From Escherichia phage B2, in sequence record NC_073069.1: a stretch of DNA of 44,283 nucleotides. One strand, 5' to 3'. The first letter of the stretch is position 1, and each line of letters opens with the position of its first letter. Made by a program: the position numbers and the translations under genes. Below, in pieces: positions 5,488-42,951 of the stretch. The notes below the pieces were generated by a model. The model was given only the letters and a program-made list of their open reading frames with translations. It had not been told where the DNA came from and ran no database searches.

Positions 5488-5520
5488 ATTGGTTGCATAA
5501 TCATATTGGTTGCATTATAT
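5488..5520 (+). promoter_or_regulatory. tandem ATTGGTTGCA motifs followed by TATATT
   Basis: attggttgca at 5488-5497 and 5505-5514, upstream of the 5569 gene. Confidence 0.4.
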
Positions 5521-5568
5521 TGAGGGTGTCCGGTTTGGACGCCCTTTTTAATACCTGGAGACAACACG

Positions 5569-6710: not shown

Positions 6711-7177
6711 AATTACTGATTTGCGATTTGGATGGCGTTATTAACGGTTCAAGCGATGCGCGTGCCGACTTGGTGCCTGGCATAAAAACTAAATCCACCT
6801 TTTGGGCGAAGTGGCACAAAGCGCACGTCCGCGAAGACCTGAACATGGATATGCTGCCGCTACTGCGCATGTATAAAGAGCAAGGCTTCGAGATCGCGTA
6901 TCTGACCAACCGGCAGCGAGAATGTTGGGACACCACCGCCGAGCAATTGGAGGTCTTCCCGGTAGGCCGGTTGTTTATGCGCCACATGTTGGACGACACC
7001 CCGCCGCCTGAGTTTAAAGCGTGCGCCGTGTTCAAAATGGTATGTTACGCGGACGTGTCTGAACTGGTCATCATTGAAGATTGCGAGAAGAACATCGCGG
7101 CAATTCGTCGGGCGTGTGGTGATTTGGTCCCGAAAATTTACGCAATAAACGTTGCAAAATTCACTTGCAACCAATAG
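6707..7177 (+). CDS. HAD-superfamily hydrolase-like protein (putative phosphatase/nucleotidase)
   Basis: ATGA overlap start; HAD motif I LLICDLDGVI, YLTNR and a later acidic motif IIEDCEKN. Confidence 0.5.
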   Translation: MKLLICDLDGVINGSSDARADLVPGIKTKSTFWAKWHKAHVREDLNMDMLPLLRMYKEQGFEIAYLTNRQRECWDTTAEQLEVFPVGRLFMRHMLDDTPPPEFKACAVFKMVCYADVSELVIIEDCEKNIAAIRRACGDLVPKIYAINVAKFTCNQ

Positions 7178-20426: not shown

Positions 20427-20494
20427 TATGCAGTCCCCCTTTTTATGCAGTTGCCGTCGGTCATTGTATCAGCGAATTTAAAACAAACCTTATT

Positions 20495-20816
20495 CAGTCT
20501 CAGACGAGGGGGGCCAATAACCCCCGTCTAGTCTGAAAGACTGGGCTTTGTCCCGCCTGTCCCGATCGGCTAAAACCCGCGGCAGCACTGGCGGGGACAG
20601 GGGTGCTGTCCCGCTTTGTCCCGCCTCATTCTGTCCCGCTTTCTGTCCCGTTTGTTTTATGCAGAAAAACTGAATAGGCATTCACATTTTGGGGCGGGAC
20701 AGATCGGGACAGCACCCCTGTCCCGCTTTTAATTTATGCAATGTAGGTGGGTAAATATGCAGTTTTTAGAGGTGCGGGACGGAACGGGACAAAACGGGAC
20801 GTCCCGCCTGTCCCGT
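20495..20816. repeat. hairpin plus GTCCCGC iteron array, copy A
   Basis: First 70 nt (20495-20564) are 68/70 identical to 37292-37361; about 14 GTCCCG(C) units in both orientations up to 20816. Confidence 0.75.
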
Positions 20817-30626: not shown

Positions 30627-32012
30627 TTAGTAGAAGTCTACAGTAGGAACAACGGCGATTGGGCGAATCACAGGGAACAGGTGCGCAACAGGATAGCCCG
30701 CTGCATCATTCATGTGGTCCACACCGGCAGTTTTATCCGGCTCGCCTTTCTTCAGGTCGTAAACCTGCTGTTCCAGACATTTCGCTAGTGTAGGGCATTT
30801 ATCCAGGTTGACAAAATACTGGCGCACGCCCTTCGAGTTGCACATCATCGTATTCATCGCGATCAATCGGTCTTTCACAGGGGGGTTAACGCTGTCGTAT
30901 TCCACCTCGAAGCCCGCATCTTCCAGTTGCGCGATATCGGACGACGACGCGTTGACCGTTTTGCGGGATTTTCCGCTGCTATCCGGGTACACGACGACCT
31001 TACCGGCAGCACAATGATCGGGGTAGCGCTCCTCGATCGCCTCAATCATAGCCGGGGTGTCAAACAGGTCCACAAATTCATCCACCGCGTGAATCTCGTC
31101 GCGGAACTCCTTGTTCTCGGTGACTCGCTGCCGTCTGACATACACAACCGCCGCCATCTTAGTGACGTTAAAGTCCATACCGATAATCAGCGTGTCGTCC
31201 GGCTGCACTTCTTCGGTGCTGGCGTTCTCCTCGCGGTTGAACATCTTGTACACCGCGCCCGACGTAAGGTTAACAAACAGGCCGTTCAGGTACGCATCAA
31301 TCAGGTTAGCCGGGTACTGACTGCGCAGCGTGTCGATAAAGTCTGCCGGTAGGTGGTGGTTGTCCGTGGTCTTCGCCCGGATCAGGCGCTTCTGGCTACC
31401 CTTCTCCACCTCGAAAATTTGATACATCGCCCGGTAGCCTTCCGGCGTGGACACGATGACAAACTGGCGGACGAAGCCCGCACGCAGACGACCGAGCAAT
31501 TTGTGGTATGCCGCCATTGCGACGTCTTGTTTCGTGGTGTCGAACTCGTCGGCAACAATCCACGCGGCGTTGACCCCGATCAGGCGGGTATAGTTCTCCA
31601 TTGATTCACAGATAACGCGGGTCCATTTGCCTTTCACCAGCACGTTATAGATCTTGTCCTGCTTATTGAACTTCCACCGGAATCCGGCCTCATCGAATGC
31701 CTTCTCCAGTTCCGGATACATGATTTTAACCAGGAGTGGAATAGTCGGTTCGGTCACGATGCCGTCATAACCGGGGTTAAGTGTCAGGAGCTGGATGACC
31801 TTACGCGCAGCTACCCACGACTTGCCGCCACCGAAGCCAGAACACAGGCCGAGGATTTTAGTCTTCGTGTCGCGCAGTAGTTCAACCTGGTGCGGCAAGC
31901 AATCAGGCTGGTAAAGGCGGACGGCCTGCGCAACGCGTGTCGGGCGTGGCGGTCGGTTACGCTTTGCGATCGCGCGTTCCAGTGCGCGGTGTTCTGCCGC
32001 ATAGTTACGCAT
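30627..32012 (-). CDS. terminase large subunit
   Basis: 461 aa; Walker A-like GLCSGFGGGKSW; ATPase then nuclease-like half; flanked by small terminase and portal. Confidence 0.85.
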   Translation of the reverse strand: MRNYAAEHRALERAIAKRNRPPRPTRVAQAVRLYQPDCLPHQVELLRDTKTKILGLCSGFGGGKSWVAARKVIQLLTLNPGYDGIVTEPTIPLLVKIMYPELEKAFDEAGFRWKFNKQDKIYNVLVKGKWTRVICESMENYTRLIGVNAAWIVADEFDTTKQDVAMAAYHKLLGRLRAGFVRQFVIVSTPEGYRAMYQIFEVEKGSQKRLIRAKTTDNHHLPADFIDTLRSQYPANLIDAYLNGLFVNLTSGAVYKMFNREENASTEEVQPDDTLIIGMDFNVTKMAAVVYVRRQRVTENKEFRDEIHAVDEFVDLFDTPAMIEAIEERYPDHCAAGKVVVYPDSSGKSRKTVNASSSDIAQLEDAGFEVEYDSVNPPVKDRLIAMNTMMCNSKGVRQYFVNLDKCPTLAKCLEQQVYDLKKGEPDKTAGVDHMNDAAGYPVAHLFPVIRPIAVVPTVDFY

Positions 32013-32563
32013 TAATCACCCTGACCTTTGCCGGTAGGTTCCACAACGACGTCGCCGTTATCATCTTCGTCGTCATCCAGAGGCACATCGTCGCGGACGC
32101 CGTGGTTGGCTTTAAGCAGGAATGTAGCGAAGCCCGCCGCGATGGTCACGCCGCCAGCTTCCATCAGGAAAGTTTTCTGCAACTCCATAGCATCCGCCAT
32201 CGCCTCGGCGAACTCCTCATGTGCGCGCGCCCAGCGATACAGGCAAGCGACGCCAACGCCTATTTCCGCGGCAAATCGACCGAAGGTTGGCATTTTGTTG
32301 CGAGGGATTACTTGCGCAGCGCCTTTATCGGAGTAGTTGACCTGCCAGGCGTCGGCGTCGGCAAAATAGCGGCGAAGCTGGTCGCAGTAAACGGATCGGT
32401 AGTCAGTAGGGCGTCCACATTTGCCGCCTTTACGGCGCTTTCCGTACTCGATTTCCGGTCCAAGATTGGTGTGCTCGGTTTGCTCGCCTGGTTTACGGCG
32501 CGGGGTTACTGCTACTCGTCCGTCCAGTTTGGCGCGTCGGCCCTTAACTTTGATTTCTGCCAT
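32012..32563 (-). CDS. terminase small subunit
   Basis: Start at ATG 32563 with aaaggg SD; HTH-like FGRFAAEIGVGVACLYRWA; acidic C-terminus; overlaps large terminase start. Confidence 0.55.
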   Translation of the reverse strand: MAEIKVKGRRAKLDGRVAVTPRRKPGEQTEHTNLGPEIEYGKRRKGGKCGRPTDYRSVYCDQLRRYFADADAWQVNYSDKGAAQVIPRNKMPTFGRFAAEIGVGVACLYRWARAHEEFAEAMADAMELQKTFLMEAGGVTIAAGFATFLLKANHGVRDDVPLDDDEDDNGDVVVEPTGKGQGD

Positions 32564-32627
32564 GATATAAGCCCTTTTGTTCATATGCGCCGACCATCGG
32601 CAACATAGGAGACGGCCCTGCCATCTA

Positions 32628-32668
32628 ATGGGGATTATAACAGGCACAAAAAAGCCCACCAAATCGGC
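32628..32668 (-). promoter_or_regulatory. sigma70-like extended -10 promoter upstream of the terminase genes
   Basis: tgttataat on the minus strand (TGn-TATAAT) about 65 nt upstream of the small terminase start. Confidence 0.4.
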
Positions 32669-33885: not shown

Positions 33886-33998
33886 TATGGCGGCGGGCTA
33901 TATCAATTCGCAAATAACCATGCCGATAAAAGCCGCGGTGGTCCAGATCGCTAATACCCAAATATCTTTACGTGCCATCTTGATTACTCCTCTCGTCG

Positions 33999-34031
33999 AT
34001 TGGTTGCAGTATGACCCCTGTGTTGGTTGCG
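33999..34031 (+). promoter_or_regulatory. ATTGGTTGCA motif and a second TTGGTTGCG copy
   Basis: attggttgcagtatga at 33999 and ttggttgcg at 34023, both + orientation, inside the leftward late region just before the 34042-34067 hairpin. Confidence 0.35.
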
Positions 34032-34041
34032 AGTCAAGCAA

Positions 34042-37096: not shown

Positions 37097-37137
37097 TGCA
37101 ACCAATATAGCAGGGTGCGGGGGTGGGCGCAACCAAT
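37097..37137 (-). promoter_or_regulatory. two ATTGGTTGC motifs upstream of the 37075 gene
   Basis: On the minus strand ATTGGTTGCGC...ATTGGTTGCACACCAACA then SD and ATG. Confidence 0.45.
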
Positions 37138-37291
37138 ATTAATCACGCGCATGAAAAAGTCGATCGCTATCTGCTGCAACTGCAAACTGCATTTCTCACT
37201 CACCATTCTGCAACTCGCATTGGTTGCCTAGTTCAGCGACGACCGCAATTTCCAATATGCTGCCGTGTATTATGCAATCCCGGATTTTATG

Positions 37292-37448
37292 CAGTCTCAG
37301 ACGAGGGGGGCCATTGACCCCCGTCTAGTCTGAAAGACTGGGCTTTGTCCCGCCTGTCCCGCTCCCCGCCAGGCCGCGTCATCCGTGGCGGGACGGGGGT
37401 GCTGTCCCGCTTTGTCCCGCCCCTGGTCTGTCCCGCTTTTTGTCCCGC
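37292..37448. repeat. hairpin plus GTCCCGC iteron array, copy B
   Basis: 37292-37361 is 68/70 identical to 20495-20564; followed by about 7 GTCCCGC units; lies downstream of the primase gene. Confidence 0.75.
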
Positions 37449-37498
37449 TTACTTTATGCAGTTTTATTGCATAACTATGCATTATATTCACACTACAC

Positions 37499-37614
37499 GG
37501 CAACCAATACGACCGACTAAAAGCACGCAAAATGGCAACCAATGCGCGCAGAATTTAATCATTTACCGATATGGGGATCCCCATAACGGCAACCAATGCA
37601 CGCAAAATTTAATC
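37499..37614. repeat. GGCAACCAAT direct repeats flanking a 16-bp perfect palindrome
   Basis: 30-bp repeats at 37531-37560 and 37585-37614 (27/30 identical), a third core copy at 37499-37508, palindrome tatggggatccccata at 37570-37585; overlaps the primase stop. Confidence 0.6.
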
Positions 37615-39861
37615 TTTTAAGTCTTCATCGGTCGCTGAAAGCGTGATAGGGATATCCGATTTGATGACCAAATTAGACGACCCATAGATGGCCCCGGTGT
37701 GCGGATCGGTGTAAAAACCTATCACTCCGCGCTCCACCATATCGTCGATTGCCTTCGTCGAAGTGCCACCTTTCGCGAGTCCCGCCTGGCGGACAATTGC
37801 CGATTTACTGAATCCAGTATGGTCTGGGTTATCTTCCATCAGTTTTTCCAGGGCCGCATAAAGCACTTTCTCTTTTTCGTTGCGCGGTCCGGCGGTGTTC
37901 TCTTCCTTAACTGCGGCCTTTGCCTGTTCAATAGCGAACGGTGCCAGGGCAACCGGTACGAGGTAGAGAGTCTCGTCGCGTGGCGTGGAGGCAATCGGCT
38001 TGACGTCCCATCCGGCAACCACGTCGCCGAAGTCTGGACCGGTGCTGGTGGACTGGTGCGCCTCGAACGCTTCTGACTTGCGGAGATCCACCTTCACCTT
38101 GCACTTGAGCAGGACGAAGCCGCGCGGCGCTTGCTTGATGCCGTTACGTGACTTCTCATGATACAGGTTCAATTGTCCGGGCTGGTTGTCGTCCGGCTGT
38201 TCCAGGAAGAACGCAGAATCGACAGCACCATGCAGCGCGCCGGACCCGCGTGGGGTTCTGCTGCCGTTTGCACCTTTAGCCGGGTGGTGGATGACGCCCG
38301 CACTGCCACCTGTATTTTCCGCGATGGCCTTCAGCGCTTTGACCACTTCACCCATATCGCTGGCATTGTTCTCGTCGAACGGTTTAGCCTCGGCGGACCG
38401 CAACGCAACAGTCTGGTTGAGTGAGTCGAACGCCACCAGGCCAACCGGTTCGCCGTTAGCGGTGCGGTTGATAAAGCTGATAACTTCACGCAAACCGGAC
38501 TTGCTGGTGATATCCCAGCCGCGGGATTGCAGATCGATAATGTGCAGCTTGTCCAGGTCGTGCTCATATTTAATCTGCAATGCTTCTTTACGCTGGTTGG
38601 AGGCCTCACCACCTTCCGCATCGAAATAGAAGCAATGAGACTGGACGACCTTCGCACCGCCAAACGGGATCCCCGCGGCAACCGCGCCCATCTGCCCCAG
38701 CACGTAGAAGGACTTACCGATATTCGACTCACCCGCCATATACCAGGTCGATTTAAAGTTAATCAACCCCTCGATGATCGGGTCGTGCTTACTGAACAGC
38801 GCAACCGGCTCGTTATCTAGGTCCGCATCGGTGCACACGCCGTATTCTTCGCCGTCGCCAACCGCATCAACAATATGTTCATATAAGGACTCGACTTCCT
38901 CGTCGTCCAGACCAGGCAGGATGGCGGCGATTTGTTTACGTGACATGTTGTGCGGCTCGACGTTCAGGTAGTCTGGTATCCCGAGAAGACGTAGCGCCAG
39001 GTGCTGGTGTCTATTTAGCTCCGAGCAACACTCGTTGCCGGTGTGCATACACTTGAAACGGATCTCGCCATCCTTGACCATGATAGCCGTCGACCCTTCG
39101 CCGCTGTGCAGATGTTCGTTCGGGCACGGAACTTCATAACCGCGACCGGACGATAACGGCTCGAATCCGGCCTGAAAGCACCAATCAAGAATGCCGTCAG
39201 CCACTGCGGCGTCGCCCTGGGTAAGCTCGCGGCGTACTTCCTCTTTCTCCACCCCCAGCTTGTCCGCCAGGCGGAGCAGACGCCGCACATTGGCGCGTTT
39301 GCCGTAGTGGCACTTAATAACCGATTGCTGGTGCGGCAGGTACATCAGGCGGTTTGTGTCTTTCGTGCAATCGTCGAAGTCCACATCTGACAGACCAAGT
39401 TGGTGTAATAGCGCATACTGGACACGGCCCAGGTCTTCCGCCGGGACAGGCTTGTCCGTCAACACCAGGAAACGGGCGCAACGCGTGCCGCCTTTCAGTG
39501 GGTGACGGTCGCCGGTTGTGGTGTGGAATACGTGTTCCAGACCCGCGTCGATGAAAGCCTTACGGCAGCGGCGCAAGGTGCGAGTGTCGGTGCGGTCAAT
39601 ATCAAAGAACAGGATCGAGCGGTCCACCGCGCTGGTCTTACGGCGTAGGCCGTCACTGGTATATGCCACGATGCCATCGGCCTTGCGCTTGCGGCGCGCA
39701 TACTCGGCTTTATCCTCGGTCTTGTTGATGTGCACCGATGAGATTTCTTTCGCGTCATTGATAAATTCGAAAAATTCATCAGTTGTCATCTGGAAGTTTT
39801 CCGCCCTGGCTTTTTCGCCTTTTTTAGCGGGTCTTGTTACAGCGAATTTAATTAAGCTCAT
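37609..39861 (-). CDS. primase-polymerase/helicase-like replication protein
   Basis: 750 aa; N-terminal AEP-like ILFFDIDRTD and HTTTGDRH motifs; central Walker A GESNIGKS with RecA/DnaB-like ATPase region; C-terminal region reads as a possible wHTH. Confidence 0.7.
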   Translation of the reverse strand: MSLIKFAVTRPAKKGEKARAENFQMTTDEFFEFINDAKEISSVHINKTEDKAEYARRKRKADGIVAYTSDGLRRKTSAVDRSILFFDIDRTDTRTLRRCRKAFIDAGLEHVFHTTTGDRHPLKGGTRCARFLVLTDKPVPAEDLGRVQYALLHQLGLSDVDFDDCTKDTNRLMYLPHQQSVIKCHYGKRANVRRLLRLADKLGVEKEEVRRELTQGDAAVADGILDWCFQAGFEPLSSGRGYEVPCPNEHLHSGEGSTAIMVKDGEIRFKCMHTGNECCSELNRHQHLALRLLGIPDYLNVEPHNMSRKQIAAILPGLDDEEVESLYEHIVDAVGDGEEYGVCTDADLDNEPVALFSKHDPIIEGLINFKSTWYMAGESNIGKSFYVLGQMGAVAAGIPFGGAKVVQSHCFYFDAEGGEASNQRKEALQIKYEHDLDKLHIIDLQSRGWDITSKSGLREVISFINRTANGEPVGLVAFDSLNQTVALRSAEAKPFDENNASDMGEVVKALKAIAENTGGSAGVIHHPAKGANGSRTPRGSGALHGAVDSAFFLEQPDDNQPGQLNLYHEKSRNGIKQAPRGFVLLKCKVKVDLRKSEAFEAHQSTSTGPDFGDVVAGWDVKPIASTPRDETLYLVPVALAPFAIEQAKAAVKEENTAGPRNEKEKVLYAALEKLMEDNPDHTGFSKSAIVRQAGLAKGGTSTKAIDDMVERGVIGFYTDPHTGAIYGSSNLVIKSDIPITLSATDEDLKD

Positions 39862-39871
39862 TGCCGTTGCC

Positions 39872-40201
39872 TTATTTGGAAGTTTTATTATTGCGTACCC
39901 AGGATCGCACTGTGCTCTGGTTGATTCCGGTTAGCTCGGCGATCATAGCCCATGATTTACCCTCATCACGTAAACGGATAACCTGTTTTTTGTATTCTTC
40001 CATTTCTTCATTGTGCTTTTGCAGCTTGCTTGCTGCCGTACCGTTGAGTAATTCCAGCTTCGCGCGCAATTCTTTTTCGGTAAGTCGCAGACGTTCGATT
40101 TCAAATAGCACCGCACCCACGGCATCGGTATATGCCCAGGACCGGCTTGTCTCACTGCAAACAGTCTTAGTTAACATTTCGATTGCGTCGTCGATATTCA
40201 T
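39872..40201 (-). CDS. small HTH-domain protein (putative regulator)
   Basis: 109 aa with ggaga SD; C-terminal HTH-like SWAMIAELTGINQSTVRSWV; first gene of the leftward block. Confidence 0.45.
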   Translation of the reverse strand: MNIDDAIEMLTKTVCSETSRSWAYTDAVGAVLFEIERLRLTEKELRAKLELLNGTAASKLQKHNEEMEEYKKQVIRLRDEGKSWAMIAELTGINQSTVRSWVRNNKTSK

Positions 40202-40332
40202 TGTTCTGTCTCCGGTTGGTTAATGACCAACGAAACTACACCTAAAACCGCGGGGTGTCAACTCCTTTGGAATATTGAAACGGGCGCGCACGCGTGTAAT
40301 AATACTCCCGTCTCATTGTCTCTTATTGGTTA

Positions 40333-40366
40333 GCGCCGTCGCATTTTGCTTCGGCGCTTTTTTTTT
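40333..40366 (+). terminator. hairpin followed by a 9-T run in the divergent control region
   Basis: gcgccg...cggcgc stem followed by ttttttttt, directly upstream of the -35 of the rightward promoter. Confidence 0.5.
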
Positions 40367-40377
40367 GAAATTAGTTG

Positions 40378-40407
40378 TTGACACCTATCCTGCAACCAAT
40401 CTATTAT
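40378..40407 (+). promoter_or_regulatory. sigma70-like promoter for the rightward early operon
   Basis: TTGACA (40378-40383), 18-nt spacer, TATTAT (40402-40407); the spacer contains tgcaaccaat (40391-40400). Confidence 0.5.
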
Positions 40408-40603
40408 TCACCCCGTCGACAGGATGCAGGACGCAAACTGGAGAGGGGCAACGCAGGGGCCGGATCGAAGTGTCAGGATTCCCAACCGTGATTATATAAC
40501 CAGGTCCACTACCCGAAAGGGAGAACGCGTAACCTGGCAATATGTTAAGGCCACCGACGAAGTTTACTGCCGACACCTAAACTTAACCAATCGGAGATAC
40601 ACC

Positions 40604-41032
40604 ATGTTTGAACAAATCGTAAACCTGATCACTCGCGGCGTAGTAGCACTGGAAATCATCGCTAAACATTATGAAACCGTTGGCGCTGCCGTTGGTAAGC
40701 AGGAAGACAAGAAGCCGTCTAAGGCCAAAAAAGAAGTCGTAGAAGATGACGACGATGAAACCGAAGACGAAAAACCGGCGAAGGGTAAAAAAGCACCTGC
40801 GAAAGGCAAAGGTAAGAAAGATGCCGACCCGCTGGCAGAGATGCGCGACGAGATCAAACAATACGCCGCGATTATCGCAGGTGGTGACGACGACGACGCG
40901 AACGACGAATTTGACGACCTGCTGGAGGCGTTCGAGATCAAATCAATCGCCAAGCTGGAAGATGACGACGTGGAAGATTTCCACAAAGATCTGAAAGAAA
41001 TCGTCGAAACTTATTTCGAATTGGAAGATTAA
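40604..41032 (+). CDS. highly acidic low-complexity protein (first rightward gene)
   Basis: ggaga SD then ATG 40604; 143 aa with D/E runs (EDDDDETEDE, GGDDDDANDEFDD) and a lysine-rich segment; the track ORF from 40424 is an R-rich upstream extension. Confidence 0.5.
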   Translation: MFEQIVNLITRGVVALEIIAKHYETVGAAVGKQEDKKPSKAKKEVVEDDDDETEDEKPAKGKKAPAKGKGKKDADPLAEMRDEIKQYAAIIAGGDDDDANDEFDDLLEAFEIKSIAKLEDDDVEDFHKDLKEIVETYFELED

Positions 41033-41040
41033 TACTATCC

Positions 41041-41068
41041 GGCCCGCTAATCTGCGGGCCTCTTTTTA
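41041..41068 (+). terminator. intrinsic terminator
   Basis: ggcccgc-taatct-gcgggcc followed by tcttttta. Confidence 0.6.
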
Positions 41069-41080
41069 GAGGACGAGACA

Positions 41081-41332
41081 ATGGCACGCTTCACGCTAAT
41101 CGAGGCGGTGGATTCCCGCGACCAGCGCCCATATTATTGGCTATTCGAACGCATCGGCAGCTTTCAGTCACGCGTTGCCGTAATAGATAAACGCCGTAAC
41201 ACCCCCGCGCAAATTAAGCGCACCACCTTTACTAATCCCGACTTTTATATTTGGGCGGATTCCAATCTGGAATATGTTCGTTTCGCCGTCGCATCCGAAG
41301 CAAAAACAATTGACCGCTGGGAGACAAAATAA
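41081..41332 (+). CDS. hypothetical protein
   Basis: 83 aa with gagga SD. Confidence 0.4.
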   Translation: MARFTLIEAVDSRDQRPYYWLFERIGSFQSRVAVIDKRRNTPAQIKRTTFTNPDFYIWADSNLEYVRFAVASEAKTIDRWETK

Positions 41333-41521
41333 ATGGCTATATTTTTCGTTTTATTTCGCTGCCGTATTACCGGCGATGAGCAACCGGAAATCGTTATGAA
41401 TCAGAACTGGAATGGCTGCTGGACTCAAGCCAGAGGTTTGGCGGCTACCATGAACGAAGCCGCGAAGCGGGCCGGTGTTAAACATGAATATTACATTGCT
41501 CAGTTTTCAAGGGTGGAATAA
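41333..41521 (+). CDS. hypothetical protein
   Basis: 62 aa ORF starting right after the upstream stop with ggaga SD. Confidence 0.3.
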   Translation: MAIFFVLFRCRITGDEQPEIVMNQNWNGCWTQARGLAATMNEAAKRAGVKHEYYIAQFSRVE

Positions 41522-42951
41522 TGGCGATTAAACCAAAACGTAAAACGCAATCCGGCAGCAATACGGAACACTCATTACTCGGGCCATCCGGTGCTAAAAA
41601 ATGGATGGGTTGCCCTGCGGCCCTGGTGGTCGAAAAAGATATCCCGAACGAATCTGGACAGGCCGCGATTAATGGTACGAGTATGCACACCGTATCTGAA
41701 GTGGTGCTAAACCGCATTATCGCCGGTGAAAAGCTAATAACAGCAAAGACGTATAAAGGATGTTACGTCGAGAATGAAGGCAAGGGGCCAGTAAAGGCGC
41801 ACCCGAAAGCACCGAAAGGCGGCGTACTGGTCAACGACGACATGGTGAAACAGTGCGACGCGTACATCGACCACTGGCGACCACTCCTCGAGGTGGCGGA
41901 GTTTGTCCAGCTTGAGATGCGCGCCGATCTGACCCGCGTCCTTCATTCAGGCGTCGAGATAGACGGTAACAAGGTTAAGACGTTCGGCACTGCCGATATG
42001 GTCATGGTCATGAAGAAGACCGATGGCACGTACATGCTGATTGTTGGCGACTTGAAGACCGGGCGACATAAGGTCGAGGCGAAAGAAAACAAACAGCTTA
42101 TGTTGTACGCGCTCGGCCTGCTGCGCAAACTGCAAACCATGTATGACATTACGACCGTGCGCCTGGTCATCTTCCAGCCGTATTGCGGCGGGGCGTCAGA
42201 GTGGGATATCTCAGTGGAAGCGCTGGAGATATTCGCGAAGTTTGCGTCCAAGCGTGCTATCGCCGCGCTCGATGCATACGCCCGCGGCAAGAAGGGACTA
42301 ACCCGCGCCGACTTCCGGCCCAGCGTCGATGCGTGCCAGTGGTGCAGATTTGCGGACCAGTGCAGCGTCCGGGCGAAGGCCGCAATCGACACGATGACGC
42401 CACCAACGGCAACCGACGAAGACCTGGGCGACGACGTGAGCGTGGCAACCGAGGAAGAGTGCGCCAACCACGACCGCAATATGGCCCGCGAAGCCCGGAA
42501 GGCTGCCCGACGTGCTAAACGGGGCAAGAAGGAATCCACCCCAGGCGCTATGAGCGCGGCGGAACTGCGCAAGGCTTATGAAGGACTTGACGCAATGCGC
42601 CAGCACATCAAAGCTATCGAATCCGCGGTATTCAAGGCGGTCATGGCGGGCGATGGCGAATCGTTGGGCCTTAAGATGGTTGCCGGTAAGGAAGGGATCC
42701 GTAAGTGGGCGGACGAGAGCGAAGTGATTGAAATATTCACGAAGGCCCGGATCAAGCGCGATGTGATGTACAAAGAAACATTGCTCAGCCCTACGGATGC
42801 CGAGAAGGTGTTGAAGGACGAAAAACCGAAAGTGTGGGCGAAGCTGTGTGCTAAAATCACGCGCGCACCCGCTAAACCGGTGTTAGCACCCATCGACGAC
42901 CCTCGCCCTGCGTGGTCGGAAGCTACTGACGAGGACTTAAGCAATGAATAA
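41521..42951 (+). CDS. PD-(D/E)XK nuclease with Cas4-like cysteine cluster (DUF2800-like)
   Basis: N-terminal Cys (MGCPAA), core TADMVMV...IVGDLKTG, C-terminal CQWCRFADQC cluster; charged C-terminal extension. Confidence 0.6.
   Translation: MAIKPKRKTQSGSNTEHSLLGPSGAKKWMGCPAALVVEKDIPNESGQAAINGTSMHTVSEVVLNRIIAGEKLITAKTYKGCYVENEGKGPVKAHPKAPKGGVLVNDDMVKQCDAYIDHWRPLLEVAEFVQLEMRADLTRVLHSGVEIDGNKVKTFGTADMVMVMKKTDGTYMLIVGDLKTGRHKVEAKENKQLMLYALGLLRKLQTMYDITTVRLVIFQPYCGGASEWDISVEALEIFAKFASKRAIAALDAYARGKKGLTRADFRPSVDACQWCRFADQCSVRAKAAIDTMTPPTATDEDLGDDVSVATEEECANHDRNMAREARKAARRAKRGKKESTPGAMSAAELRKAYEGLDAMRQHIKAIESAVFKAVMAGDGESLGLKMVAGKEGIRKWADESEVIEIFTKARIKRDVMYKETLLSPTDAEKVLKDEKPKVWAKLCAKITRAPAKPVLAPIDDPRPAWSEATDEDLSNE

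Follow-up and report, generated by a model that had tools for sequence, protein, structure and literature searches.

Divergent promoters, a repeated box and two predicted non-coding RNAs in the putative early control region of Escherichia phage B2

The only divergent intergenic region in the genome of Escherichia phage B2, as judged by mapping onto phage PaulFeyerabend, lies at 40202-40603 and is rather likely, on a reading that includes inferred steps, to be an early control region carrying four transcription signals and two non-coding RNAs. The larger of these RNAs, a structured leader of 163 nt (40415-40577, + strand) running from +1 of the early rightward promoter, takes up ~40% of the interval and recurs in phages well outside the genus. 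The window analysed (the whole stretch of 44,283 nt) is the complete genome of a virulent coliphage of the genus Dhillonvirus (HK578-like). Members of the genus, among them HK578, PaulFeyerabend and KarlBarth of the BASEL collection, and SECphi18, serve as standard laboratory phages in studies of bacterial immunity and phage therapy, and a literature search turned up no paper that maps their transcription signals. The region offers a testable wiring diagram made up of a pair of early promoters facing away from each other, a short RNA ended by a terminator and a genus-wide box with ~20 sites.

Divergent promoters and a short terminated transcription unit

Start codons on either side of the interval, an ATG at 40201 on the minus strand for a helix-turn-helix (HTH) protein and an ATG at 40604 on the plus strand for the rightward gene, agree with a sequence-only reading of this DNA in which the leftward and rightward gene blocks diverge here; the palindrome, hairpin with T9, promoter and overlapping motif that it listed were likewise all found in place and are kept in relatives. 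Conservation was profiled over 21 distinct relatives as the fraction of invariant alignment columns per element and reached 86% for promoter P2, 95% for the seed region of the candidate small RNA (40312-40331) and 100% for the box, by comparison with 25% for adjacent coding sequence and 29-38% for spacers. Promoters were scanned by counting matches out of 12 to the -35 and -10 consensus hexamers, and a site with a weak -10 falls under the scanner's rule.

The early rightward promoter PR (40378-40407, + strand), previously read as TTGACA-N18-TATTAT, was confirmed with 11/12 matches as the top site within 39000-42000. Relatives have TTGACW, a spacer of 17 or 18 nt and a -10 of TATTAT, TAATAT or TATCAT, with the gap between box and -10 fixed at 1 nt. 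Having hexamers near consensus and a spacer within 16-18 nt, PR is by its sequence a strong, conserved sigma70-type promoter, with a start predicted at ~40414-40415 (+).

A 117-bp core separates PR from PL, a candidate leftward promoter (40233-40261, - strand) with a -35 of TTGACA (40261-40256), a 17 nt spacer and a -10 of TAGTTT (40238-40233). PL scores 9/12 with only 3/6 in the -10, which puts it under the scanner rule, and it was read directly from the sequence; among the 21 relatives its TGTCAA is invariant and its AAACTA almost invariant. The predicted start at ~40226 (-) would give a leader of 25 nt, and this stretch holds TTAACCAACCGGAGA (40226-40212, - strand), which is near-identical to TTAACCAATCGGAGA in the unstructured linker (40583-40603, + strand) that precedes the ATG at 40604 and contains a box-like heptamer plus a Shine-Dalgarno sequence. 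The first leftward gene (39872-40201, - strand) encodes a protein of 109 aa (PHROG 9366) with a C-terminal HTH, residues 65-105 of which match Pfam HTH_23 (4.6e-7) and Sigma70_r4_2 (2.1e-6). Its AlphaFold model is all-helical (pLDDT 73.8), and searches for solved relatives by sequence or fold gave nothing informative, only generic HTH fold matches with E>0.5.

A third promoter-like site, promoter P2 (40275-40303, + strand), combines TTGAAA, a 17 nt spacer and AATAAT with an extended -10 TG (10/12 matches). Its spacer contains the palindrome CACGCGTG (40289-40296), which is unchanged in most of the 21 relatives (L012 has a substitution and L016 a 2 nt deletion). A role for the palindrome as a repeated site was ruled out, its count in the genome being at expectation (two copies versus 1.8). 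From promoter P2, a candidate small RNA or attenuated leader of ~55 nt (40310-40366, + strand) would comprise CCGUCUCAUUGUCUCUUAUUGGUUA, an invariant 5' part without pairing, and then the hairpin of the terminator, and promoter P2 and the terminator would together form a conserved ~55 nt transcription unit; alternatively, promoter P2 could be an upstream regulatory site of PL instead of a promoter. The candidate small RNA matched no Rfam family at threshold, nor any at E<=10, a duplex scan for targets inside the phage stayed at chance level, and 9-mers complementary to it in the phage were not enriched (6 versus 6.2 expected). A 36-aa ORF at 40223-40333, annotated as gp49 in PaulFeyerabend, was rejected as a gene, with stops or frameshifts in 11/16 relatives and invariant nucleotides.

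The intrinsic terminator (40332-40366, + strand) has a 7-bp GC stem and an inner 3-bp stem followed by T9 (40358-40366); GCGCCG (40333-40338) pairs with CGGCGC (40352-40357), and A40332 with T40358. The hairpin and 9-T run proposed earlier hold up on folding (-16.2 kcal/mol, z = -2.8, with 3/200 shuffles folding as well), and the consensus scanner had missed them because the outer loop is 13 nt. In the divergent relative L016 the stem is retained through two compensatory changes (AGCGCCG/CGGCGCT to ATCCCCG/CGGGGAT). The GC-rich hairpin thus stands directly before a U-run on the transcribed strand, as in intrinsic terminators; no T-run follows the hairpin on the minus strand.

This terminator lies 11 nt upstream of the PR -35, an arrangement that had been taken to suggest insulation, or that the physical end of the genome or the start of packaging is close by. 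As the promoter of the leader RNA is also preceded by a terminator in several other phages, shielding of PR from read-through is plausible. A nearby genome end is not supported: terS (32012-32662) is ~8 kb from the interval; the only published end for the genus, a cos predicted by PhageTerm in phage EE09 (PMC10673088), has a flank that maps to ~5517 of the window, ~9.4 kb away (the exact EE09 cos sequence was not found in the window); and headful packaging has been reported for another member of the genus (PMC9022532). Moreover, the only plus-strand promoter able to feed the terminator is the highly conserved promoter P2, ~30 nt upstream, and the terminated RNA would therefore be a dedicated short transcript and not read-through from a gene block. 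Taken whole, the view of the terminator as an insulator or a marker of the genome end is quite improbable. The terminator would most simply be the 3' end of a short promoter P2 transcript, a role in which it would also define where PR transcripts begin, and its place just upstream of PR would be explained by the conserved promoter P2-terminator unit ending there.

A repeated box within PR and across the genome

The motif said to overlap the promoter is indeed inside the PR spacer: TGCAACCAAT (40391-40400, + strand) occupies about -22 to -13 of PR, one base upstream of the -10, and all ten of its positions are invariant in the 21 relatives, the rest of the spacer being variable. Exact copies number nine in the window versus 0.04 expected, and copies with <=1 mismatch 18 versus 2.4; for the core, GCAACCAAY, the genome has 20 copies versus 0.6 expected. 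Gene mapping placed nearly all copies between genes, and PaulFeyerabend has 19 copies at matching orthologous positions. Six of the boxes are clustered just 3' of the helicase-primase gene. The box is specific to Dhillonvirus and, being over-represented, intergenic and orthologously conserved, has the properties of the shared site of an operator or activator-box regulon. Its orientation is not uniformly matched to gene direction, so that the box may instead serve replication or some other DNA transaction.

Given that the box is over-represented, conserved and inside the PR spacer, it is reasonable to infer that a protein binding it would occlude PR. A somewhat unlikely alternative is that the box mainly replaces the -35 at activator-dependent middle or late promoters, the copy at PR belonging to an overlapping leftward promoter. 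At seven of the 20 boxes the reverse complement, TTGCNN, is followed after 16-18 nt by a good -10 (background rate 3.7%), and promoters of this kind face the neighbouring genes at 2546, 5488, 10282 (the Cor gene), 37106, 37137 and 37508; at PR itself the reverse complement reads leftward as TTGCAG-16-TAATTT. This leftward -10 is, however, poor (3/6), and at least four boxes abut a -10 with a 1 nt gap (PR, 5505, 7178 and 26390), a typical position for a repressor. The two roles are in any case able to coexist, and the box may both repress and activate according to its position at the promoter.

We propose that on phage entry host RNA polymerase would fire PL and PR, and that a phage DNA-binding protein, for which the 109-aa HTH protein encoded first on the PL transcript is the best candidate, would then occupy the boxes. 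Binding to the box in the PR spacer would shut PR, and at the other sites, at least seven in number, where the reverse complement of the box supplies a -35 before a good -10, binding would activate. The terminator would end the promoter P2 RNA and secure a native 5' end for PR transcripts, allowing helix P1 of the leader RNA to form, and PR transcripts would open with this 163 nt RNA.

Structure and distribution of the leader RNA

The fold shown by sequence comparison has a closing helix, a small AGGAY-loop hairpin, an inner helix around a hairpin of 10 bp, and a second hairpin that is long and bent and ends in a GNRA loop. On the plus strand of the window its closing helix, P1, pairs 40415-22 with 40567-74 and is followed 3' by ACC; helix P2 pairs 40425-27 with 40433-35 around the loop AGGAC, helix P3 40445-49 with 40550-55, helix P4 40451-53 with 40487-89, helix P5 40456-65 with 40472-83, helix P6a 40494-97 with 40542-45, helix P6b 40500-05 with 40532-37, and helix P7 40512-14 with 40519-21 around the loop GAAA. 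Across 39 base pairs, 95.7% were standard pairs by comparison with 31-42% in slid controls, a percentage inflated by the fold having been derived by hand from the same sequences on which it was scored; the count of compensatory pairs is unaffected by this, with 23 pairs changed on both sides versus 4-6 in slid controls and 0/500 shuffles matching. RNAalifold returned the same helices, and a covariance model found a single copy in the window (164.6 bits, E = 1.4e-42). Folding of the single sequence was uninformative (z = -0.25). G:U pairing is kept only when the plus strand is read, and the fold therefore belongs to the strand transcribed from PR. The single-stranded joining regions are invariant. 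A suspected pseudoknot of GGRGC with GCYACC was resolved as an ordinary nested helix.

Rfam 15 gave no match overlapping 40415-40577 at E<=10, and the L027 variant of the RNA likewise had none. The leader RNA was not found to be tRNA- or tmRNA-like: ARAGORN called no tRNA or tmRNA in the window, and ACC(A) follows helix P1 in many copies of the RNA and not in all.

The downstream gene (40604-41032, + strand) encodes an acidic protein of 142 aa (PHROG 3127, unknown function), and an in-frame ATG at 40424 opens an ORF of 202 aa. This ORF, and the position of 40424-40603 between replication gene blocks, would suit a segment that encodes an N-terminal extension or whose conserved fold acts as DNA, for example as an origin. 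Both possibilities are very improbable, since 148 nt of the region are cleanly missing in four relatives, substitutions are compensatory across helices and lack codon periodicity, G:U pairs are strand-specific, each copy abuts a promoter, and in other phages the element lies away from replication genes. The coding extension was rejected on the clean deletion variants and compensatory substitutions, and it is not conserved.

Within Dhillonvirus, the leader RNA is present in ~130 of ~152 records with one copy per genome, and in ~15% of the genus a plain 4-bp hairpin replaces it, L016 having the triloop AAA where B2 has 40423-40566; the covariance model found no copy in the relatives scored as lacking it. 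Outside the genus it occurs in at least six taxa (three Drexlerviridae lineages, Jilinvirus, Murrayvirus and Sortsnevirus). A looser pattern search added one locus, and a wider search for homologues, over 185,579 genomes, gave a single match, and metagenomes gave 14; all of these lie on phage-like contigs. An origin in the host or its plasmids was rejected, as neither the 5,426 E. coli genomes nor the 72,556 plasmids searched had a match.

Every copy has a promoter before it and unrelated genes after it. The RNA always starts 0-3 nt from a predicted sigma70 start site; its closing helix begins 7 nt after the PR -10 in B2 and, in eleven other lineages, 9-10 nt after the -10 (8 nt in L028, one of the eleven). 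The distance to the next ribosome-binding site is ~25-35 nt, or ~75 nt in L018. The leader RNA is a gene-independent module, exchanged horizontally. Literature searches with sequence strings and topics found no description of it, with the bulk catalogue of >10,000 viral RNA candidates (PMC10690425) standing outside this comparison. We lean slightly towards regarding it as an undescribed, promoter-coupled class of RNA that virulent siphophages infecting Escherichia, Salmonella and Klebsiella exchange horizontally and that acts either on the RNA polymerase of the host or as a decoy for a conserved host or defence factor. Early transcripts in several phage genera would then be headed by a large RNA with strong covariation that is missing from current RNA catalogues. 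As natural variants with and without the RNA exist, its function can be tested directly, whether it lies in antitermination, in counter-defence or in sequestering a host factor.

Possible functions and relation to known systems

The leader RNA probably acts through a conserved host component that it binds; that it only stabilises or enhances the mRNA is improbable, and that it does something else again is unlikely. It resembles riboswitch aptamers in that a helix closes it at the 5' end of the mRNA, that invariant strands join the helices of a multi-helix junction, and that it has a GNRA loop. It differs from them in having no conserved expression platform and no Rfam riboswitch match, and assignment as a riboswitch was rejected: the fold is aptamer-like, yet the linkers are unstructured and variable and the downstream genes unrelated.

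One specific reading, which we consider unlikely, is of a processive antiterminator like the put RNAs of HK022, folding as it emerges, binding the transcribing polymerase and carrying it past terminators. In HK022, base-pairing of putL starts at nucleotide 3, and put RNAs are of ~70 nt with two stem-loops that form a V (PMC9378689). The leader RNA is in a similar place, its first nucleotide falling at +1 to +3 relative to an early promoter, and like putL and putR is a cis-encoded RNA directly after an early phage promoter that needs no specific downstream gene, is indifferent to the identity of that gene and has terminators downstream. In the window, an intrinsic terminator directly follows the first rightward gene (41041-41067, + strand; seven GC pairs, then TCTTTTT), with essential replication genes beyond it and no strong internal promoter; four lineages have a strong intrinsic terminator at a distance of 0.46-0.7 kb downstream, past one to three small genes. 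However, the 41041-41067 terminator is conserved in relatives with and without the leader RNA, and Dhillonviruses lacking the RNA retain it unchanged together with the same gene order. In one lineage no terminator was present within 6 kb downstream of the RNA. The size and architecture differ as well, with 163 nt, eight helices and conserved junctions in the leader RNA versus 73 nt and two stem-loops in put.

A second reading, possible and of a tentative kind, is that the leader RNA, once freed from the mRNA, works in trans and decoys a host protein, for example CsrA or a component of antiphage defence. The RNA is patchy and accessory, is swapped between unrelated virulent phages whose flanking genes differ, and heads cassettes of small early genes; its joining strands are invariant and single-stranded, and AU-rich linkers follow helix P1. 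The repeats of CsrB have the consensus CAGGA(U/C/A)G. As in CsrB and CsrC, CAGGA(U/C)G motifs of the leader RNA are presented in a short hairpin's loop and in unpaired stretches: the loop of helix P2, in a short GC hairpin, is invariantly AGGAU or AGGAC, and the Dhillonvirus RNA carries CAGGAUG and CAGGACG in tandem plus further GGA motifs, matching the CsrB repeat. Against this, the 3' end of the RNA has neither a terminator nor a known processing site, CsrA binding leaves the large P6/P7 domain unexplained, and no co-occurring partner gene was found; the partner-gene search by whole-genome presence and absence, a comparison of two genomes versus two and thus too small a sample to be informative, gave one other co-varying segment (33903-34037). 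The leader RNA has only 3-5 GGA motifs versus ~18-22 in CsrB, consists for the most part of a rigid fold of many helices that has other invariant sequences, and has no Rfam CsrB or CsrC match.

The boxes recall the middle promoters of T4, in which a MotA box takes the place of the -35. As there, some of the sites have a phage-specific motif that stands in for the -35, with an ordinary -10 after it, and the candidate factor of B2 has an HTH like that of sigma region 4. In contrast to T4, B2 has no AsiA or MotA homologue, its motif is unrelated, and the box is also found in spacers and at start sites.

The interval as a whole is most readily compared with control regions of the lambda type, with which it shares back-to-back early promoters, a regulator site within a promoter and a small DNA-binding protein (here a candidate) encoded first on one arm. 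The predicted short transcript ended by an intrinsic terminator inside the control region is likewise reminiscent of lambda OOP and P22 sar, although the candidate small RNA of B2 is antisense to no predicted transcript. B2 differs further from lambda-type phages in being virulent and lacking a repressor or integrase module, and its box is an asymmetric site of 9-10 bp at ~20 scattered places, whereas lambda has clustered palindromic operators.

Layout of the divergent control region

The 1.3 kb around the interval 40202–40603 is matched at 80–99% identity by 173 phage records, nearly all of them Dhillonvirus (HK578-like coliphages). Alignment to phage PaulFeyerabend showed the window to be the whole genome, beginning at the DNA polymerase gene, with a rightward block of replication and modification genes running from 40604 through the window end to ~8414, and a leftward block running from 40201 to ~8442 that encodes an HTH protein, a helicase-primase, small genes, lysis, terminase and structural genes. 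The interval is therefore the single divergent control region, in agreement with the sequence-only reading, and the palindrome, the hairpin with its T9 run, the TTGACA-N18-TATTAT promoter and the motif in the promoter spacer that it described are each present. The arrangement of the control region is a variant of a familiar one, and the earlier regulatory interpretation, in which a regulator binding the motif would occlude the early promoter, is reasonable but incomplete. The further suggestion of a nearby genome end or packaging start is not supported, as no evidence points to an end near 40.3 kb: terS lies at 32012–32662; the 5' cos end predicted by PhageTerm for phage EE09 (ATCTTAAGGG; PMC10673088) maps to ~5517 in the window, adjoining twin copies of the GCAACCAAY box at 5488 and 5505; and headful packaging was reported in another study (PMC9022532). 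The EE09 cos aligns immediately right of ATTGGTTGCA-N7-ATTGGTTGCA, just past the HNH endonuclease gene (5488–5530), where the window has ATTATATTGAGGG; the cos 10-mer is thus not conserved.

Across 21 distinct Dhillonvirus versions of the control region, conservation was very uneven, with invariant columns making up 25% of the 5' end of the HTH gene, 29–38% of promoter spacers, 86% of the promoter P2 site, 95% of the seed (20 nt 3' of promoter P2) and 100% of the TGCAACCAAT box. The candidate leftward promoter, PL, was read from the sequence 5' of the HTH gene on the minus strand (−35 TTGACA, 40261–40256; 17-nt spacer; −10 TAGTTT, 40238–40233); its −35 is invariant among relatives, and it was missing from the scanner list because its −10 matches at just three of six positions. 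Its predicted leader is ~25 nt with the 3' end GGAGACAGAACAATG. The leaders of the first genes of both arms have in common TTAACCAAYCGGAGA, a box-like heptamer fused with a Shine-Dalgarno sequence (40212–40226, minus; 40583–40597, plus), the complement of which, AUUGGUUA, is present in a candidate small RNA.

Promoter P2, a promoter-like site on the plus strand (40275–40303; TTGAAA, 17-nt spacer, TGtAATAAT; 10/12 plus an extended −10), begins 13 bp right of the PL −35, and the palindrome sits within its spacer. The hairpin and T9 run lie ~30 nt past its −10; the hairpin is significantly stable, two compensatory changes preserve its pairing in the relative that diverges most, and the T-run follows it on the plus strand only. 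The simplest reading is that these would end a dedicated transcript of ~55 nt (40310–40366), the single-stranded 5' part of which, CCGUCUCAUUGUCUCUUAUUGGUUA, is invariant. A 36-amino-acid ORF annotated in some records was rejected as a conserved protein, since its frame is broken or shifted in 11 of 16 relatives, and the constraint there is therefore not on protein. A search inside the phage genome found no target for this small RNA, nor does it have an Rfam family; we infer both its existence and its role.

The GCAACCAAY box and its possible regulator

The early rightward promoter, PR (TTGACA-18-TATTAT), scores highest of the sigma70 matches in the region and has a box at 40391–40400, about −22 to −13. 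The gap from box to −10 is fixed at 1 nt in relatives and the distance from −35 to box shifts by one base. The core GCAACCAAY is specific to Dhillonvirus and occurs 20 times in the window versus 0.6 expected, with 19 copies at orthologous places in PaulFeyerabend; mapped onto annotated genomes, nearly all are intergenic. Besides PR, boxes occupy the divergent gap of two genes in the head region (26390, 26404), the gap separating the lateral tail fibre gene from the Cor gene (10282), the region upstream of a 380-amino-acid phosphoesterase gene (33999, 34022), two gaps beyond the 3' end of the helicase-primase gene (with six copies in 37098–37589) and two rightward-block gaps (5488 and 5505; 7167 and 7178).

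At PR, 5505, 7178 and 26390 the box adjoins a −10 with a one-base gap. Its reverse complement, ATTGGTTGCN, gives a −35-like TTGCNN with a good −10 16–18 nt downstream in 7 of the 20 copies (background 3.7%), and six of these seven predicted promoters point to neighbouring genes, the exception being 36564. Both recurrent placements would be accounted for by a sequence-specific phage protein acting as a repressor where the box lies in a spacer and as an activator where it replaces a −35. The obvious candidate for such a box-binding regulator is the HTH protein, the 109-amino-acid product of the first gene on the PL transcript, which has a C-terminal HTH of the sigma region 4/LuxR/resolvase type. 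The promoter model alone leaves the strand polarity of the boxes unexplained: plus-strand copies are confined to 37098–40392, except for a palindromic partner at 7167, and the other 13 are on the minus strand whatever the gene direction.

Several box copies belong to larger arrangements. Those at 37534–37560 and 37588–37614 lie within a longer direct repeat of ~27 nt, GGCAACCAATGCRCGCARAATTTAATC. Upstream of the phosphoesterase gene, 33903–34037 forms a second terminator-then-promoter module with a box in the spacer (GCCCGG hairpin, TTGACT-18-CATACT, boxes 34022 and 33999), found in both of the genomes compared that carry the leader RNA of PR and in neither of the two lacking it. A segment of ~175 bp is duplicated in the window (37287–37460 and 20490–20664), with 84–87% identity to its two counterparts in PaulFeyerabend, where the annotation gives small ORFs, gp18 and gp52. 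One copy, immediately 3' of the helicase-primase gene, has six boxes around it. The segment is made up mostly of at least six direct repeats of YTGTCCCGC and resembles a protein-binding array or an origin-type element more than it does a gene.

A structured leader RNA at the predicted start of the PR transcript

The notable result of the control region, and one that is experimentally accessible, is a 163-nt leader RNA beginning at the predicted +1 of PR (40415–40577, plus strand), which is real on the evidence of covariation, and is uncatalogued and common to several phage genera. A register-corrected alignment of 22 distinct sequences supported eight helices, in which 39 pairs were standard in 95.7% of cells versus 31–42% with the partners slid, and both-sided changes occurred in 23 pairs versus 4–6. 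None of 500 shuffles attained the observed pairing or covariation values; a separate count was made on 37 sequences. An independent RNAalifold run on the same alignment recovered the same helices, with GGRGC:GCYACC as a nested helix enclosing two large hairpins. Several positions are kept as G:U on the plus strand and would give A:C on the other, which assigns the fold to the PR transcript. The joining strands GGAGA, AACC..GUGA, CACU, AGAACGC and GACGAAG are invariant; the loop of helix P2 (distinct from promoter P2) is always AGGAU or AGGAC, and that of helix P7 is GAAA, GCAA or GAAC, or ACCA in one lineage.

The segment 40424–40571 is cleanly absent from 4 of 16 aligned relatives, and the pair A40502:T40535 becomes T:A or C:G in others. 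Searched with a covariance model, every genome that carries the RNA has a single copy (that of the window at 164.6 bits), and the four relatives without the segment gave no hit. By BLAST with the segment alone, ~130 Dhillonvirus records carry it (HK578 and UAE_MI-01 at 100% identity; CEC_Kaz_2018, MK728541.1, at 98.2%), as do, at 78–92% identity over the core, PHB17 (Drexlerviridae, Changchunvirus), JK16 (Warwickvirus), KMI8 (Drexlerviridae), PT1 (Jilinvirus), Lumpael (Murrayvirus) and IME279 (Sortsnevirus). A few further phage contigs, and no bacterial copy, came from pattern scans of IMG/VR, of metagenomes and of 185,579 genomes; E. coli genomes and plasmids gave no match. Nothing similar was present in Rfam 15, ARAGORN found nothing, and no description of it was found in the literature searched; it may have an unnamed entry in a bulk catalogue.

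Possible functions of the leader RNA

The RNA is always intergenic and shares the strand of its neighbours. Every copy is preceded by a sigma70-type promoter, the −10 of which ends 7–10 nt ahead of the first paired base, and is followed by an unstructured A/C/U-rich linker of ~25–35 nt (~75 nt in one lineage, L018) and a ribosome-binding site. The downstream genes are unrelated from lineage to lineage and there is no conserved expression platform, which together exclude an ordinary riboswitch. In relatives without the RNA a simple 5' hairpin takes its place, in one case (L016) GTCG-AAA-CGAC, the outer pairs of helix P1 closed by a triloop; the RNA is therefore a module that can be dispensed with. 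A whole-genome comparison of two genomes with and two without it found no partner gene.

By analogy, the leader RNA might act as an antiterminator like put of HK022: its position at +1 is common with putL, intrinsic terminators lie 0.46–0.7 kb downstream in four lineages, and a conserved terminator at 41041 precedes the replication genes, although this terminator is unchanged in Dhillonviruses without the RNA. The first rightward gene is followed by this terminator, whose loop (41048–41053) reads TAATCT in some relatives but AGATTA, the reverse complement, in others. Since the stem stays the same, this indicates a hairpin-loop inversion. A trans-acting decoy would fit the accessory, horizontally exchanged distribution of the leader RNA, its context of early small genes, and its CAGGA(U/C)G motifs, which resemble the repeat consensus of CsrB.
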